NCBI GenBank assembly: GCA_024672275.1
Contig: GCA_024672275.1_4536.1
Strand: one strand, 5' to 3'
Source of the DNA: a phage
Length of the DNA: 64,000 nt
A program made the translations under genes and the position numbers. Position 1 is the stretch's first letter, and each line of letters opens with the position of its first letter. This document shows, piece after piece, positions 29,634 through 50,070 of the stretch. The notes below the pieces were generated by a model. The model was not told the DNA's origin, made no database searches, and was given only the letters and a program-made list of their open reading frames with translations.

Positions 29634-30449
29634 TTATTTGTTTAAGTGGTCTTCGACCATTTTAATGAAACCTTCATTGCTGAAGGCTGTTGCAGCTTTT
29701 TCTCGGTAAACAAAAACTCCACGATCTTCATAGAGAAGTGTTTCTTCGTAATTAACTCCAGGGTTAACTACAACCATTTTTGTACCCATACTAAGTGCAG
29801 GAAATAATTCCCAATTAAAATTGATAACTTGGTTTGAACATCCTACTACTACAACCAAATCTTGCATGGTCAAAGTATCGAACAAGTGAGCCATATCTGC
29901 ATACAAAGGTGCAGCCTCACCAAAAAATACAACATTAGGCTTCACCCAGTTATAATCATCTATGTTTATACTATTGTAACCAATATCTACCAGTGTTTTG
30001 TAATCTCCAGGATGCATACGGTAAACTACTTCAGGAAGATATCCGTGTACGTGAATAACAGAATCTCTGTCTACACCTGCTCGCTCTAGTAGATCATCAA
30101 CGTTTGTTGTCAAGTTTACTATTTGGTTAGGATATTCCTTAAACCACTTTGCTATTTGAATATGTGCAGCATTAGGTTGTACATCTTTAAGCTCAACACG
30201 TCTTTTGTTATAAAATTCGTGTGTTTTGGCATACAAATCCATACCGTTCTCGTCTACACCACCGACCACTGGAAGATCTGGAGATGTTCTAACACGATAA
30301 CCTGCCTGGAAAGCTCCAATATCGCAGACCTCTTCTAAATCATATTCTTCCCATAAGGCACGACCACTATCGGTGTCTGTTCGGAATGTTCTAATCCCAC
30401 TATCTGCACTTAAACCTGCACCGCTTACAAAAATCACTCGTCTTGGCAT
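29634..30449 (-). CDS. Sir2-family NAD-dependent deacylase/ADP-ribosyltransferase-like protein (271 aa)
   Basis: Sirtuin motifs GAGLSADSGIRTFR, TTNVDDL, HVHG, VFFGE, LVVVGCS; no Cys4 zinc ribbon; RBS GAGGAGG. Confidence 0.6.
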   Translation of the reverse strand: MPRRVIFVSGAGLSADSGIRTFRTDTDSGRALWEEYDLEEVCDIGAFQAGYRVRTSPDLPVVGGVDENGMDLYAKTHEFYNKRRVELKDVQPNAAHIQIAKWFKEYPNQIVNLTTNVDDLLERAGVDRDSVIHVHGYLPEVVYRMHPGDYKTLVDIGYNSINIDDYNWVKPNVVFFGEAAPLYADMAHLFDTLTMQDLVVVVGCSNQVINFNWELFPALSMGTKMVVVNPGVNYEETLLYEDRGVFVYREKAATAFSNEGFIKMVEDHLNK

Positions 30450-30983: not shown

Positions 30984-31637
30984 CTATACCAGACTTTGTA
31001 GGTATTTGTCAAGGGCTTCTTGATCGCCTTGACAAACATAGCAACGGAAGTCTTGAGCCGAAGGTTGTTTATTTTCATCCCAGTCCCAATAAACATTACC
31101 CTTATAACGTGAACCAGGAAACTCAAAAGAGGCTGTATGTGTAATGTATCCTGGGCCACCAGTGAAATCACAGAATGAGAATTGGGGGTATGCCGCCTTT
31201 ACTGCCTCAATAAACCAAGCTTTACGATCTAAGGCTTCATTGATGCTATATGCATGTCTCTCCATTTCTTCCCAAGTTTTCCAGACACTTCTCTCATCAG
31301 GAGAAAAGACAAGCCATTCTGGAAGGTAGAGAGTGTCATAGTAATCATCATATTCGATCTCGGAGGCGCACGAAGCTGACTCCTCCAGTTTTGAGTAATC
31401 AAAAGCAGAATATACCCACCAACCATCTTCCAGTAAGGCTTTGATAGGGACGAAGCCTTTATCAGCATATTGATCGAAGTGTTTGACACGGTGGCTTGTG
31501 CAGTCTTCAAACTCACATTCTAAACGATATGCACCTTTTCGACGAGCCTCAAGACCGTGTGTACTGAAAATAACAACACTTCCTTCACCATCATTACGAT
31601 CTACTTGATAAGCAACTACTGGTTTTGAATTTGACAT
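30984..31637 (-). CDS. hypothetical protein (217 aa)
   Basis: RBS AAGGAG + ATG at 31637; ORF track. Confidence 0.6.
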   Translation of the reverse strand: MSNSKPVVAYQVDRNDGEGSVVIFSTHGLEARRKGAYRLECEFEDCTSHRVKHFDQYADKGFVPIKALLEDGWWVYSAFDYSKLEESASCASEIEYDDYYDTLYLPEWLVFSPDERSVWKTWEEMERHAYSINEALDRKAWFIEAVKAAYPQFSFCDFTGGPGYITHTASFEFPGSRYKGNVYWDWDENKQPSAQDFRCYVCQGDQEALDKYLQSLV

Positions 31638-32320
31638 TATTTCTCCTTATCTAGAAGATTGTTAGACAAAAACACGGCACGAGCAAAACCACGTGCGGTT
31701 AGGGATCTAAGTTGTTTTGTTTTTGCACTAGCTCCACCTAAGCTTTTCCAACCCCAGAAGCAGCCTATATGATCTACTGGTTTCTTCACTGGTTGAACAA
31801 AACCATTGCCGTGCCAAATACAAGTTTTCTTTGTATACCCATCACGGGTAGGCATTTTAGGATGAAAGCTTCCTTCCTCTTCAAACAAATACCCACCATA
31901 CTCATAAGGATCAAAGTAAAAATCGGGTTTACGCCATAAGGTTGAAAGTTTACCTACTGGGTTTTCAATCATCCAAGGAACATTATATTTGTTACCCAAA
32001 GCTTCCACTACACGAATATTAGCTAAAGCTTCATCTAATTCCTCTGTGCTACGTTCGTGTTTGCTACCACTACCTGCTAACATAGTGCAAGGTGGAAATC
32101 CAAAAATAATATCGGGTTTAGGTATCCCATGATCTTCAGGGTTGAATGTAGAATCTATCCAGGCATTCACATAGGTTATGTTTGGGTGCTCCATCCTAAC
32201 CTCGTATTTACCGTGATCCCCTTCATCAGCGTTTACACAAAAACACTTGTGACCTGCTTCGGCATAACGTAACACCATGATCCCAGATCCGTCAAACATA
32301 GACAAAACTGTTTTACTCAT
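31637..32320 (-). CDS. C5-cytosine methyltransferase-like small protein (227 aa)
   Basis: Motif I-like FDGSG, motif IV-like GFPPCT, motif VI-like ENPVG; no obvious target-recognition domain; internal ATG 32320 with RBS GGAGGGG. Confidence 0.4.
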   Translation of the reverse strand: MSKTVLSMFDGSGIMVLRYAEAGHKCFCVNADEGDHGKYEVRMEHPNITYVNAWIDSTFNPEDHGIPKPDIIFGFPPCTMLAGSGSKHERSTEELDEALANIRVVEALGNKYNVPWMIENPVGKLSTLWRKPDFYFDPYEYGGYLFEEEGSFHPKMPTRDGYTKKTCIWHGNGFVQPVKKPVDHIGCFWGWKSLGGASAKTKQLRSLTARGFARAVFLSNNLLDKEK

Positions 32321-32708
32321 TACCCCTCCATTCAAGACAAGCCATAACTTTACGCCAATCACTTTCTGTAAGAAAAATCTCGTTTGCTTTCTTCCACAAA
32401 TCTAAATCGTGAAGGGTTGGAATACGATATGTTAGTTCACAGAATCTATGCTCTTCTTCTGTAATATAACCAAAATGCAGAGCCACATCGTGAAACCAAC
32501 ACCAACCATGCATCTCTCGAACAACATGGTCATGTTGAGACATTGTTTTATGCCGTAAACCTAACCAACAAGGAACAGATACTTTAGTAGTCTTTAATCT
32601 GTGATCAACAGTATTAGAGTATTCAATAATAGCTGTCAGTTTCAATCGTGCTTTTTCTAAATCCTCGTGCGTCACTTTGAAATAACTTTCTGAAAGATAT
32701 CCACACAT
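32313..32708 (-). CDS. hypothetical protein (131 aa)
   Basis: Internal ATG 32708 with RBS AAGGAGG. Confidence 0.5.
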   Translation of the reverse strand: MCGYLSESYFKVTHEDLEKARLKLTAIIEYSNTVDHRLKTTKVSVPCWLGLRHKTMSQHDHVVREMHGWCWFHDVALHFGYITEEEHRFCELTYRIPTLHDLDLWKKANEIFLTESDWRKVMACLEWRGNE

Positions 32709-32709
32709 A

Positions 32710-33651
32710 TTAATAACCTCCTTCAAAAGGCTTTACTACATGTTGATTAGCTTTAAAACGTTCAACATAATCGTTTTCGCCCATGTTTTCATATAGCTTA
32801 GTAACAACATAAAAGTTTTCCCAAGCATATTCCCTAAACCAACCACTAGTGATGGATGTGCAGACTTTAGATAAAGCCATTATAAAACTTTGCTTAGGGG
32901 TTGGACCTCCGATCTCTCCACCGAAAGGAATTTGTGAACGTTCCAAAGCCAAAACACACGCTTCTTCATAAACACCTAACAGGCGCACATGTTTTGGTTG
33001 AGCAAAAAACTTTTCTTTGCTGGTCATAACTTCACTTCCATCTTTCATATAAGATTTATATGCCGGAGCATCCATTACCGCGATTGCTTCATGGATAGAA
33101 TCATGATCATAAACATACGGAACCTCATCACCTTTAAAAAAGTCTTTACTTTTTACGTTTAAGTTCGGATGAGAGTAAGTGTATGTTTCTTTCTCACGCA
33201 ACTCATAAATACTCTTAAGATTTTCTGGGATCTTTGCGCCCAGTGACCGCATGAAATGAATATCTTTCATAGTTTTAAAGAAGTGAGGACTATCCTTTTT
33301 AAAACGATGACTCATTTTAAGAAGGTAGAGCACATCTAAAGGAGCAACAACATGTCCAGCGTAAGTTCGACGAACATCATCAGAATCTTCACAATAACTA
33401 ATCAAAGCTTCTGTGCTATCTCCTTGAGAAGCAATATCGTATTCCAAATGTGCACCAGCTATCATTTTGACATGGCCTTTGTTTCCTTTACGTTCTACAA
33501 GTTCAACAAACTCATCTTGAGAGAACATTTTTGATAATTCTTCCCACTCTTGTTCTGTACACAGGTAATCTAAATCTACACAAGGGCGATACAAGTCTTT
33601 TCCCATGTCCATAGCATGAATTTGCAATGCACGGCTACCAATTAACACCAT
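32710..33651 (-). CDS. hypothetical protein (313 aa), weak nucleotidyltransferase-like N-terminus
   Basis: RBS AGAGGAG + ATG; N-terminal GS...(19)...DLD pattern reminiscent of Pol-beta-type NTases (weak). Confidence 0.55.
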   Translation of the reverse strand: MVLIGSRALQIHAMDMGKDLYRPCVDLDYLCTEQEWEELSKMFSQDEFVELVERKGNKGHVKMIAGAHLEYDIASQGDSTEALISYCEDSDDVRRTYAGHVVAPLDVLYLLKMSHRFKKDSPHFFKTMKDIHFMRSLGAKIPENLKSIYELREKETYTYSHPNLNVKSKDFFKGDEVPYVYDHDSIHEAIAVMDAPAYKSYMKDGSEVMTSKEKFFAQPKHVRLLGVYEEACVLALERSQIPFGGEIGGPTPKQSFIMALSKVCTSITSGWFREYAWENFYVVTKLYENMGENDYVERFKANQHVVKPFEGGY

Positions 33652-33741: not shown

Positions 33742-34014
33742 CTAACACATTGAGGAAGAAGAGATCCAAACACCTCTTGTGGTTAAACCATTTTCATCCA
33801 ACTCTACACCATAATCTTCACAAATGAAATCAATATAGTGATCTGCGGCTGGCGTTCCTGTAGGGTAATAAGTTTCTCCGTTACCGTAGTCACCTATCCA
33901 AGCTTGTTCCTGAAACTGTTCACAAAGTTCTTCAATCTCCTTACGAAACTTTCTTTGTGCTTGTTCCATCTCTTTAACTTTCTTTTTTATCAGCAGTTCG
34001 CCTTCAGACTCCAC
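33742..34014 (-). CDS. small acidic protein, C-terminal W-x-SSS-x-C family (90 aa)
   Basis: RBS AAGGAGAG + GTG start; C-terminus GVWISSSSMC. Confidence 0.5.
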   Translation of the reverse strand: MESEGELLIKKKVKEMEQAQRKFRKEIEELCEQFQEQAWIGDYGNGETYYPTGTPAADHYIDFICEDYGVELDENGLTTRGVWISSSSMC

Positions 34015-34023
34015 AATCTCTCC

Positions 34024-34242
34024 TTAACAGCTACTACTGTGCCAAACGCCTTGAGAATTAACGACGAAACCATCATCACCTTCACCATAACAAGAAGAGG
34101 ATTGCCAATCTTCAAAACAGATTGCGTCATTTTCTAAACTAAGACCAAAACCAGCATCTTCAGCTTCTTTTGTAAGTTCGTCCACTAAAGCCATAATAGC
34201 TTGGGCTTTTTCAGTTAATTCTTCAACATTACGATCACTCAT
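34024..34242 (-). CDS. small acidic protein, C-terminal W-x-SSS-C family (72 aa)
   Basis: Internal ATG 34242 with RBS AGAGGAGAAA; C-terminus GVWHSSSC. Confidence 0.5.
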   Translation of the reverse strand: MSDRNVEELTEKAQAIMALVDELTKEAEDAGFGLSLENDAICFEDWQSSSCYGEGDDGFVVNSQGVWHSSSC

Positions 34243-34517
34243 TAGTATTTCTCCTCTGGTTGGAAAACTGAACGACAAGCCCACATACTAGCTTCTTTTA
34301 AATGTTTAATAGCACAACGGATTTGATCAATACGTTCGTATGCAAAATCTAATTCTTTCTCTGTGCCGTCAAAAGACCCATGATATGCTTCACAATACTC
34401 TTCCTCTAAAGCTTTGAAGATTAAACCTAAACGCTCTTCTGCATCTTTAATAGCGTTAACCTTGCCAATCTTATCGTCAGTATGCGCCTTATAACCTTTG
34501 ATATCTTCGATTCCCAC
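34242..34517 (-). CDS. hypothetical acidic protein (91 aa)
   Basis: GTG 34517 with RBS TAGGAGG preferred over track ATG 34556. Confidence 0.45.
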   Translation of the reverse strand: MGIEDIKGYKAHTDDKIGKVNAIKDAEERLGLIFKALEEEYCEAYHGSFDGTEKELDFAYERIDQIRCAIKHLKEASMWACRSVFQPEEKY

Positions 34518-42396: not shown

Positions 42397-42657
42397 TTAC
42401 TCCGCAATTTGAGCCATGAGATCACGCAGTTCGGTAAAACCGCCTACGTATGTTACCTCCCCGTTCACTTCAGACAGAATTTGTGGAAATGTGCGTGGAG
42501 GAACTCCGGTAAGATCAACAACTGTTTTAGTCATTGATTCTAAATCATAGTCTTGATCAAGACTTAAATATTCAAACTGTTTATTGCGCATGGTTAATAG
42601 TTGTTTTGACATTTCGCAAAATTGACAGTTAGGTTTACCAAAAATTACAAATTCCAT
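42397..42657 (-). CDS. glutaredoxin-like redoxin (NrdH/Grx-type), 86 aa
   Basis: Active-site CQFC in thioredoxin-fold context FGKPNCQFCE; location beside nrdAB. Confidence 0.7.
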   Translation of the reverse strand: MEFVIFGKPNCQFCEMSKQLLTMRNKQFEYLSLDQDYDLESMTKTVVDLTGVPPRTFPQILSEVNGEVTYVGGFTELRDLMAQIAE

Positions 42658-43499
42658 TACCTCTCCTTATTAAGTAATACTGCTAAAGACTGTTCAATAC
42701 CTTTATTTAAATCTGATTTTGTAAGATAGTGACTGGTTACTAATTGTGACTTCACCGGACGTGCTGCTGGAGCATTATAGGTTGAAGCTGATACCGCCGA
42801 TATCTTAACAGGTTCTGGCATCTGTGTCAAGATCTTTTCCGCAAACTCCGCCCAAGAAATAAAATGGCTTCCTGCAAAATGGTAAGTCTTAACAGACCTT
42901 GACCAACCTGTTTTTAATACTTCAAAAATAGCTTCTGCTAAATCTGGAGCATATGTTGGACAAGAGAACTGATCAGCAACAATAATAAAATCACGTTGTC
43001 CATCGTTATAGCGAGACAACATCGTTTTTAGAAAGTTATTTCCAAATTCACTATATACCGAGGCTGTTCGAATAATATATGCATTTGGGTTAACTCCTCG
43101 CACCATTTTTTCACCAAGTTCTTTCGTATACCCATAATTGTTTATTGGGTTAGGTGTAGTATCTTCAAAAATAGGATGAGAATAATTAAAAATATAGTCT
43201 GTAGAAATATGCACAAAATCAATTTTAAGTTTGCTGCACACTGCCGCAATATTCGCAGGTCCATAAGCATTAACAGCCAAAGCAGTAGCAAAATCATGTT
43301 CTGCTTTATCTACAGCCGTATAAGCGGCGCAATTAATAACACCATCTACATAATCTTCAATAATAGCGTTTCGCACAGCTTCAAAATTTGTAATATCTAC
43401 ACGTTCTTTAGGATAAATTAAAGATACATTTGAAGGAGCCACTTTACGTAAAGCTTGTCCCAGTTGTCCATTACCACCCAATACCAGATATGTTAGCAT
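42657..43499 (-). CDS. rmlD: dTDP-4-dehydrorhamnose reductase RmlD (280 aa)
   Basis: N-terminal Rossmann LVLGGNGQLG, YTAVDKAE, STDY..Y.K...E catalytic region; overlaps rmlC stop. Confidence 0.85.
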   Translation of the reverse strand: MLTYLVLGGNGQLGQALRKVAPSNVSLIYPKERVDITNFEAVRNAIIEDYVDGVINCAAYTAVDKAEHDFATALAVNAYGPANIAAVCSKLKIDFVHISTDYIFNYSHPIFEDTTPNPINNYGYTKELGEKMVRGVNPNAYIIRTASVYSEFGNNFLKTMLSRYNDGQRDFIIVADQFSCPTYAPDLAEAIFEVLKTGWSRSVKTYHFAGSHFISWAEFAEKILTQMPEPVKISAVSASTYNAPAARPVKSQLVTSHYLTKSDLNKGIEQSLAVLLNKER

Positions 43500-49071: not shown

Positions 49072-50070
49072 TCACCATTTAGTATGATTTGTTAAAAGTT
49101 GACGATGTTGAATCCAGCCTTTGAAATTGCCAGACCAAAACTTACCATTACGATCTACATGGGTAATACCTGGTTCCCAAGAGTTAGAATCCCAAGGAGC
49201 ATTGATAAACAAATCTTCAAAACAGTTCTCTCCATATTGTTCGCATGTTTCTTGCATTGGAGTGGCTTGATGTTCAAACGGAGAAGCATGAACCTTGCGC
49301 CCAGTCAGCAAACGACCATAGATATCTAAAGCTTTATCTTTAGTTGCATTTAAACGACGATAGCTAACCTGTGCACAACACGAAGCTGAAATAGCTTTGG
49401 CTTCTTCCAAAGTAAGCACAACAACTTCTCCAGATTCATCTTGAACGTAGTATCCACCAAAAACAAAATGATCGTCACCTTCTGTGCCAATATTATCATA
49501 GAAATGGTCTACATAAGGTGTGTGCCATTGCCCTGGTTTCAGCACTTCTGGTGTAGATTCTTCATACTCTTTGTGCATCTCTTTAGCCAAAGCTTCGATA
49601 GTAGGATCGGCTTCTTTGTCATCACGTAGCCACCAGAAATTTTCATATTCTGTTGCTGTCAGAACTGTTTTAATTCGTTGGAAAGGTTCCAGAAGACGGT
49701 TTGCAACTTGTTTGTGGTACCCTGCCAAAGAGAATTCTTCTGCAAAACGTGCTGCACTAAGCGCGGCAAGATCCCACCACTCTTGAGCAGTATAACCTGC
49801 ATCAATAAGAGCGTCATGATCAACACCTTTATCCTGCATACCAGGTTGGTTAGCCCCAAAACGATAAGGACGAGCAGGTTGATTTCGCACCATTTCAATC
49901 AGTGTTTTAACAGGTATAGCACGGCTAGAAGCAGCATTACGACTGAACAGGCGGTGAGTCATCAATTCTGAATGAATAATACGTGGATATTCTAGTTCAA
50001 AAGTTACAATCTCTTTTCCGTCTTCAGTGATGGAATGCGCAATAATACTAGCCGAAATCTGTTTTGTCAT
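49072..50070 (-). CDS. thyX: flavin-dependent thymidylate synthase ThyX-like protein (332 aa)
   Basis: ThyX signature region FELEYPRIIHSELMTHRLFSRNAASSR matches FTFH...P.....RQ.RHR..S.N..S.RY pattern; extra C-terminal domain. Confidence 0.55.
   Translation of the reverse strand: MTKQISASIIAHSITEDGKEIVTFELEYPRIIHSELMTHRLFSRNAASSRAIPVKTLIEMVRNQPARPYRFGANQPGMQDKGVDHDALIDAGYTAQEWWDLAALSAARFAEEFSLAGYHKQVANRLLEPFQRIKTVLTATEYENFWWLRDDKEADPTIEALAKEMHKEYEESTPEVLKPGQWHTPYVDHFYDNIGTEGDDHFVFGGYYVQDESGEVVVLTLEEAKAISASCCAQVSYRRLNATKDKALDIYGRLLTGRKVHASPFEHQATPMQETCEQYGENCFEDLFINAPWDSNSWEPGITHVDRNGKFWSGNFKGWIQHRQLLTNHTKW

Follow-up and report, generated by a model that had tools for sequence, protein, structure and literature searches.

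A compact Dcm-like candidate DNA C5-cytosine methyltransferase in a phage genome

We analysed a gene of 227 codons plus stop (positions 31637..32320, minus strand, ATG start) in a stretch of phage DNA of 64,000 nucleotides (nt; contig GCA_024672275.1_4536.1 of GenBank assembly GCA_024672275.1), the whole of which is referred to here as the window. The gene very probably encodes a stand-alone, 'orphan' DNA C5-cytosine methyltransferase that depends on S-adenosylmethionine (SAM), belongs to a compact Dcm-like phage family, lies in a leftward operon and has CCWGG as its probable target. We infer the activity, target and role of the window protein; formation of 5-methylcytosine (5mC) in DNA has been observed for a homolog of 50% identity. 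Sequence comparison indicates that the protein is not new and that it represents a large, already annotated phage family with one characterised member.

The characterised homolog and its family

Homology to the Dcm of phages K42 and KarlJaspers is the strongest evidence for reading the window gene as a DNA C5-cytosine methyltransferase. Phage K42 is 95% identical to KarlJaspers (Bas06), and the K42 mutants that escape retron Ec86 (Retron-Eco1) all carry lesions in a gene of 711 bp named dcm (bioRxiv 10.1101/2023.08.16.553469; later cited as Wang et al., Cell Rep 2024;43:114857). In the same study, expression of K42 dcm was toxic only in the presence of retron Ec86, and mass spectrometry coupled to liquid chromatography (LC-MS) detected high 5mC in the multicopy single-stranded DNA (msDNA) of the retron when Dcm was wild-type, but not when it carried the changes C82A/E128A/K175A/K176A. 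Changing either cytosine of the msDNA sequence CCTGG abolished defence (bioRxiv 10.1101/2023.08.16.553469). The KarlJaspers gene bas06_0055 has the same length of 711 bp, and its product aligns with the window protein over the full length at 50% identity (E=1e-71), with C82, E128, K175 and K176 of K42 Dcm falling on C78, E119, K164 and K165 of the window protein. Both proteins (236 and 227 amino acids (aa), respectively) have a common architecture, a C/E/K/K active site and N at the motif II position. They differ in origin, K42/KarlJaspers Dcm coming from a Drexlerviridae siphovirus and the window protein from a Stephanstirmvirinae myovirus, and in the kind of evidence available, 5mC formation and retron triggering having been shown experimentally for K42 Dcm whereas the window protein is known from sequence.

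The window protein matches phrog_757 ('DNA methyltransferase') with E=1.8e-84, residues 1–225 aligning to profile positions 13–223 of 247, and proteins 100% identical to it carry the names 'Dcm', 'DNA methyltransferase' or 'hypothetical protein' in deposited records. Using tblastn, we found homologs in 1,488 of 50,697 phage records (~3%), with Escherichia (572), Klebsiella (521) and Salmonella (107) among the hosts and with a spread across Drexlerviridae, Webervirus, Vequintavirinae, RB49-like phages and others. A database clustered at 90% identity yielded 870 matches, with full-length homologs at 60–99% identity; an exhaustive search of representatives at 50% identity yielded 965 clusters at E<=1e-3 and 380 at E<=1e-10, and more distant full-length homologs are 31–57% identical. 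Among 5,426 complete E. coli genomes, 25 have prophage copies that are annotated as 'DNA cytosine methyltransferase'. Nearly all listed homologs are 200–260 aa long, so that the short length of the window protein reflects the normal family architecture and not a truncation.

We counted residue conservation over 75 diverse family members. C78, G85, E119, P121, P138, Y162, W169 and P177 are invariant, K164 and T166 occur in 74 of 75 members, and the window protein has all of these residues. This pattern of conservation points to evident purifying selection on the compact phage family. Five records labelled 'Campylobacter phage' match the E. coli phage region in nucleotide sequence, and the protein is present in 36 records so labelled. 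For 'Campylobacter phage C4' (~50 kb) the protein identity is 62%, near the values for Webervirus and T1-like phages. From these sequence matches, the host labels of the 'Campylobacter phage' records look doubtful.

Motif anatomy and predicted fold

An earlier note on this DNA, made by a model from the sequence alone, had described three motifs resembling those of C5-cytosine methyltransferases in a protein that it took to have no target-recognition domain and to be too short for a standard DNA enzyme. The motifs are present in canonical order, FDGSG at residues 9–13, GFPPCT at 74–79 and ENPVG at 119–123, and are encoded on the minus strand, which the note had left unstated. We used E. coli Dcm from the MG1655 record (472 aa) as canonical reference, with motif I at residue 93, C177, E224, QHRER at 274–278, RRLTPRE at 400–406 and GNSV at 435–438. 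The spacings between motifs I and IV, IV and VI, and VI and VIII are 69, 41 and 45 aa in the window protein versus 84, 47 and 52 aa in Dcm; order and spacing are near those of Dcm up to motif VIII and are not incompatible with a C5-methyltransferase. The proposed likeness to this enzyme class is thus borne out by motif order and spacing as well as by the predicted fold described below.

Conservation is highest around the predicted catalytic residues. In motif IV, C78 is found in 75/75 members, F75 in 68/75 and P76 in 72/75, and in motif VI, E119 and P121 are found in 75/75 and N120 in 72/75, whereas motif I is well conserved only at L8, D10, S/T12 and G13. Motif IV reads F-P-x-C-T in the compact family versus F-P-C-Q in canonical enzymes. 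Canonical enzymes also carry Q-x-R-x-R as motif VIII and GNxV as motif X; the compact family has Y-x-K-x-T and no GNxV. The motif VIII variant is conserved throughout the family (Y162 75/75, K164 74/75, T166 74/75), with position 165 being less conserved (K or R in 47/75). At motif II, the window protein has N30 in place of an acidic residue that is present in 70/75 members.

The spacer between motifs VIII and IX comprises 38 aa in the window protein versus 121 aa in Dcm and, in the structural model, contains only short helices and loops. A target-recognition domain of canonical size is therefore missing, as the note had said, but its position is not empty. Loop B, a short variable loop of residues 178–203, sits exactly where the canonical domain lies, so that the recognition element appears from sequence to be miniaturised and variable rather than absent. 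Loop B, with 1.48 bits per column, and loop A, with 1.32 bits per column, are the two segments of low conservation in the C-terminal half (motif blocks, about 2.7–3.1 bits), and loop A is gapped in about a third of members. Downstream of loop B, the family consensus R-S-x-T-P-R-G-F-A-x-A-V-F aligns to RRLTPRECARLMGFEA of Dcm (400–415) with a score reached by 39 of 2000 shuffles. The C-terminus of the KarlJaspers protein aligns to the same Dcm segment with a score reached by 24 of 2000 shuffles, and the match of the window protein's own C-terminus, which has A209 instead of P, is not significant. Conservation of at least 90% is found in this block at R205, S206, P209, G211, F212 and A215. The protein is unusually short, with 227 aa versus 472 aa in Dcm.

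Among the checks that the earlier note had proposed, hidden Markov model (HMM) searches gave the phrog_757 match reported above and left the Pfam model PF00145 below its cut-off, and structure prediction placed DNA C5-methyltransferases of the DNMT3 type at the top. The AlphaFold2 model, computed with 42 homologs, has a mean pLDDT (predicted local distance difference test) of 88.3 and a pTM (predicted template modelling score) of 0.88 and is poorly defined in the catalytic loop 84–86 only. In a Foldseek search of the PDB, the top 44 matches are all DNMT3A/B/C (E about 1e-7), and the viral structure neighbours of the model are cytosine methylases. DNA methyltransferases score higher and align over 177–195 residues, versus 134–140 for RsmB/NSUN; generic Rossmann methyltransferases and RNA m5C enzymes reach scores of <=10.2 over about 120–140 residues. 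The model thus adopts the three-dimensional fold of C5-methyltransferases, and the structural link to the DNA-modifying members, as far as a predicted structure can tell, is clear. The catalytic domains of DNMT3A and DNMT3B are the nearest structural match, at 14–19% identity. DNMT3 keeps motif X and acts as a dimer or tetramer reading CpG, whereas the window protein has no recognisable motif X. To our knowledge, the DNMT3 enzymes have the smallest recognition element among C5-methyltransferases, and DNMT3A/B read only a dinucleotide.

By analogy with C5-methyltransferase enzymology and with the homolog, C78 of motif IV would attack C6 of the flipped-out cytosine, E119 of motif VI would protonate N3, K164 and K165 would stand in for the arginines of motif VIII, and SAM would donate its methyl group to C5 of the cytosine. 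Sequence contacts would have to come from the loops 146–159 and 178–203 and from the catalytic loop, possibly aided by oligomerisation as in DNMT3. The most likely target, which we hold with less certainty, would be the Dcm site CCWGG. Methylation would then pre-empt CCWGG cutters such as EcoRII where host Dcm is absent or too slow, at the cost of a methylation signal that may be sensed by defences of the retron Ec86/Eco1 type. The window protein shares its fold and the succession of motifs I, IV and VI with E. coli Dcm and M.EcoRII-type enzymes, presumably also the chemistry, and possibly a motif IX-like block and the CCWGG target.

Table 1 Features of the methyltransferase gene in the window
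Feature	Position	Strand	Remarks
Coding sequence (CDS), compact Dcm-like DNA C5-cytosine methyltransferase (predicted)	31637..32320	-	stop 31637-31639; phrog_757; identical to annotated Dcm of phage tuntematon
Shine-Dalgarno GGAGG	32325..32329	-	4 nt upstream of ATG, within 3' end of upstream open reading frame
Motif I F9-D-G-S-G13, SAM-binding loop (predicted)	32282..32296	-	aligns to FAGIGG (Dcm), FSGAGG (M.HaeIII)
Motif IV G74-F-P-P-C78-T79, predicted catalytic cysteine C78	32084..32101	-	aligns to C82 of K42/KarlJaspers Dcm
Motif VI E119-N-P-V-G123, ENV-type, predicted catalytic glutamate	31952..31966	-	aligns to E128 of K42 Dcm, ENV of E. coli Dcm
Loop A, residues 146-159, variable-length insertion between YGG and Y-x-K-x-T of motif VIII	31844..31885	-	low information
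Motif VIII variant Y162-T-K164-K165-T166	31823..31837	-	replaces QxRxR; K164/K165 align to K175/K176 of K42 Dcm
Loop B, residues 178-203, variable, at position of target-recognition domain	31712..31789	-	low information
Motif IX-like block R205-S-L-T-A-R-G-F-A-R-A-V-F217	31670..31708	-	family consensus resembles Dcm motif IX

Target site and competing explanations

Two lines of evidence bear on CCWGG as the target. Virion DNA of Klebsiella phage KP36, which has 155 CCWGG sites, is uncut by EcoRII, and DNA of phage KP34 is cut by all enzymes used; the authors concluded that KP36 has no cytosine methylase gene and credited its EcoRII resistance to host Dcm (Kesik-Szeloch et al. 2013, PMC3620542). 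We find that KP36 gp74 (NC_029099 47552-48244) is a member of the compact family (230 aa; 59% identity with the window protein; E=9e-71 for the family HMM), that it has the FW(G/A)WK.LGG sub-type of loop B in common with the window protein, and that it has roughly 250 near-identical Webervirus homologs. No homolog of the compact family was found in KP34, the genome of which has 156 CCWGG sites. KP36 methylation was attributed to the host because gp74 had gone unrecognised, and the gene content suggests that this attribution may need revisiting. KP36, a Webervirus of Klebsiella, belongs to another phage family and host genus than the window phage, and its gp74 is linked to methylation by sequence comparison. 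EcoRII resistance of KP15 and KP27 was also considered as support and was dropped, as KP27_137 is a canonical C5-methyltransferase of 303 aa with PCQ, ENV, QRRER and GNSV.

The second line is motif avoidance. CCWGG is not avoided in four of four phages that carry the gene and is depleted in lambda and T7 (Table 2). The window avoids CCGG (observed/expected ratio (O/E) 0.36) and GGCC (0.35), so that its cytosines are not generally protected, contrary to what blanket methylation would give. Both lines are compatible with CCWGG methylation; both have host Dcm, Vsr repair, phylogeny and the small numbers as confounders. Nothing specific on phage methylomes for the compact family was found in a literature search.

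Table 2 Observed/expected frequencies of CCWGG under two background models
Phage	Gene present	Markov	Base composition
Window	yes	1.11	1.58
KarlJaspers	yes	1.03	1.91
Klebsiella phage 13	yes	1.02	1.49
DrSchubert	yes	0.88	1.74
Lambda	no	0.59	0.76
T7	no	0.03	0.03

Further motif counts were obtained alongside. CCSGG is scarce in the window, with 2 sites versus 9.3 expected from the Markov model (O/E 0.22) or 34.9 from base composition, and in KarlJaspers, with 2 sites versus 11.6 (O/E 0.17) or 51.5; this gap suggests selection by CCSGG- or CCNGG-type restriction enzymes. As a family-level sign of protection restricted to CCWGG, avoidance of CCSGG was dropped, as the site is not depleted in Klebsiella phage 13 (O/E 1.51) or DrSchubert (0.94). 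KarlJaspers has 0 GAATTC and 1 GATATC sites. In the window, CCWGG, GCGC and GATC are not depleted, and the retention of GATC (323 sites, O/E 1.04, versus 0.54 in lambda and 0.04 in T7) hints at Dam-type protection.

Several observations weigh against an assignment to CCWGG-specific DNA C5-methyltransferases, some with respect to the enzyme class and others with respect to the site. For the enzyme class, PF00145 reaches 11.6 bits versus a cut-off of 22 (E=0.18, residues 4–92 only) and attains E<=0.01 in just 2 of 75 family members, the window protein has no NCBIfam match, the family profile finds no solved C5-methyltransferase in the PDB at E<=1, and hhalign returns E. coli Dcm with a probability of 2%, though with motifs I, IV and VI in register. 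Motif VIII has neither arginine of QxRxR, and no motif X (GNxV) is recognisable before the protein ends 10 residues past the motif IX-like block. For the site, the CCWGG target of K42 Dcm was taken by analogy with host Dcm and not mapped, and msDNA in MG1655 (dcm+) was low in 5mC, the retron not being self-triggered until the phage enzyme was expressed (bioRxiv 10.1101/2023.08.16.553469). Loop B is identical to that of KarlJaspers, a K42-type Dcm, at only 7 of 26 positions versus 49% for the whole protein, so that specificity is not simply transferable; window-type enzymes read FWGWKSLGG in this loop and K42-type enzymes NPGWAKTGG. EcoRII resistance of KP36 could stem from host Dcm, as its authors assumed, the motif-avoidance comparison sets four phages against two and is confounded by phylogeny and Vsr repair, and in the BASEL study restriction resistance did not follow in any simple way from the presence of methyltransferase genes.

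Other sequence searches give similarly faint signals. A single-sequence search returned M.HaeIII at E=0.08 with motifs I and IV aligned, hmmsearch against Dcm aligned motifs IV–VI alone (3 bits), and PADLOC matched type II and Druantia cytosine methylases weakly and at the N-terminus (E about 1e-4). The sequence-level link to canonical C5-methyltransferases thus appears weak, and because the links to solved structures and curated models are weak, the superfamily assignment rests on fold, motif order and the characterised homolog.

The one serious rival is an active DNA C5-methyltransferase with a specificity that is different from that of host Dcm or relaxed. The enzyme could methylate the outer cytosine of CCWGG, read a shorter or degenerate site, or prefer hairpin or single-stranded DNA via its miniature loops. 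We regard this as unlikely, but as deserving real weight: no family member has a site mapped to the single base, a variable loop of 26 residues takes the place of the target-recognition domain, and the nearest structural matches, DNMT3A/B, read no more than two bases. In addition, both cytosines of CCTGG are needed for triggering, and because msDNA of dcm+ cells is low in 5mC and non-triggering, host Dcm and the phage enzyme are not functionally equivalent on msDNA, be it through dose, hairpin preference or target cytosine. Arguing for CCWGG nevertheless, KP36 DNA is fully resistant to EcoRII, an enzyme that is blocked by Dcm-type CCWGG methylation, and gene-carrying phages keep CCWGG, with CCGG and GGCC being avoided in the window. 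Moreover, m5C in R-C contexts exposes a phage to McrBC in E. coli K-12 and CmCWGG does not. On balance, we consider CCWGG specificity plausible.

The remaining explanations fare much worse. The earlier note had left open whether the protein is an orphan anti-restriction DNA methylase, an RNA methyltransferase or an enzyme acting at the nucleotide level; the first is favoured by the 50%-identical homolog, which makes 5mC in DNA in vivo, and nothing was found in support of the other two. That the substrate is RNA (m5C in tRNA or rRNA, as for Dnmt2 or NSUN/RsmB) or free nucleotides is highly improbable. DNA methyltransferases are the better structural matches, motif VI reads E-N-P and there is no second catalytic Cys (TC) of RNA m5C enzymes, and the homolog methylates the DNA part of msDNA. 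A nucleotide-level pathway of cytosine modification was considered and dropped, as the thymidylate-synthase-like gene of the window is ThyX-like and not a dCMP hydroxymethylase, and no such pathway is evident. It is just as hard to believe that the protein is a relic without catalytic activity, still binding DNA or SAM but transferring no methyl group. In favour are the degenerate state of motifs VIII and X, N30 where most members have an acidic motif II residue, and sub-threshold matches to curated C5-methyltransferase models; against it, C78, E119, P121 and K164 vary little or not at all in a very large family, and the active K42/KarlJaspers enzyme likewise has N at motif II and K-K in motif VIII. 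No more credible is a DNA cytosine C5-carboxymethyltransferase like CmoX, which would use carboxy-SAM (Cx-SAM) from E. coli CmoA to make 5-carboxymethylcytosine as a handle for hypermodification. CmoX (PDB 8yf3; PMC12783734), an enzyme of 333 aa that recognises GC, carries SPPC together with an Arg contacting the carboxylate of Cx-SAM and occurs in linkage with CmoA and a ligase. Neither SPPC nor the carboxylate Arg is seen in the window protein, which has FPPC (F75 in 68/75) and no motif X equivalent, and the K42 homolog yields 5mC. No CmoA or CmoY-ligase function was found among the immediate neighbours or the open reading frames (ORFs) of at least 250 aa in the window, which covers 64 kb of a genome of ~150 kb.

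Genomic setting and significance

The methyltransferase start codon is secure, with a Shine-Dalgarno sequence at a suitable position (Table 1) and the same CDS in GenBank records. The stop end of an upstream ORF of 137 aa (32313..32726) overlaps the methyltransferase ATG by 8 nt, and the methyltransferase stop codon has 1 nt in common with the ATG of the next ORF. Because of these overlapping start and stop codons, the gene is placed in a translationally coupled leftward operon of small genes. The 6-kb neighbourhood is ~98% identical to that of many Phapecoctavirus (Stephanstirmvirinae, phAPEC8-like) E. coli myoviruses. The gene is flanked by PHROGs of unknown function, and the neighbour genes differ in KarlJaspers, Klebsiella phage 13, KP36 and DrSchubert. 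A recognition partner supplied in trans by a neighbour gene was ruled out, the flanking genes being unrelated and varying by phage family and K42 Dcm alone having sufficed in vivo. With neighbours that vary between phages and K42 Dcm working alone, the enzyme needs no dedicated partner.

Three genes downstream in the same operon, 29634-30449 (minus strand) encodes a Sir2-family, NAD-dependent deacylase-like protein (phrog_2162, E=3e-104) that stays below NCBIfam cut-offs and has no PADLOC match. Further features of the window are side observations. An ORF of 280 aa at 42657-43499 (minus strand) reaches 238.5 bits with the NCBIfam equivalog model of RmlD, dTDP-4-dehydrorhamnose reductase, and so exceeds its cut-off of 224 bits; it adjoins PhoH and ribonucleotide reductase genes and would be a sugar-nucleotide enzyme unusual for a phage. 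The protein of 332 aa encoded at 49072-50070 (minus strand) matches a PHROG 'thymidylate synthase' and weakly the ThyX model TIGR02170 (E=1e-7, 31.5 bits versus a cut-off of 87.9), and by sequence we classify it as a divergent flavin-dependent thymidylate-synthase-like protein. Adjacent ORFs of 90 and 86 aa at 33742-34014 and 34024-34284 (both minus strand) match the C-terminal part of phrog_899, have similar Ser-rich, Cys-terminated tails (...SSSSMC and ...HSSSC) and are probably tandem paralogs. The first ~29.6 kb of the window contain no ORF of at least 250 aa and apparently small ORFs only, and no tRNA gene was found in the whole 64-kb window.

Annotation as a compact Dcm-like DNA C5-cytosine methyltransferase is routine and can be made with good confidence; as the family does not reach the thresholds of Pfam and NCBIfam, 'hypothetical' is still the label of many copies. 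The key scientific question is how so small an enzyme selects its site without a target-recognition domain, motif VIII arginines and motif X, and whether this site is CCWGG or another. We put forward, tentatively and as more doubtful than not, that the compact family represents a distinct minimal form of sequence-specific DNA C5 methylation, in which a domain of ~225 aa with motif VIII lysines and no motif X would read a 5-bp site via two loops, possibly with dimerisation on the palindrome, or else that it has a specificity unlike that of host Dcm, and the lack of self-triggering of retron Ec86 in dcm+ cells would thereby be explained. If either is true, the family would provide the smallest known scaffold of a sequence-specific C5-methyltransferase. 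Phages with this gene probably methylate CCWGG in their own DNA and, by analogy with the Drexlerviridae enzyme, may be detectable by retron Ec86/Eco1, which bears on host-range prediction for therapeutic Phapecoctavirus phages.

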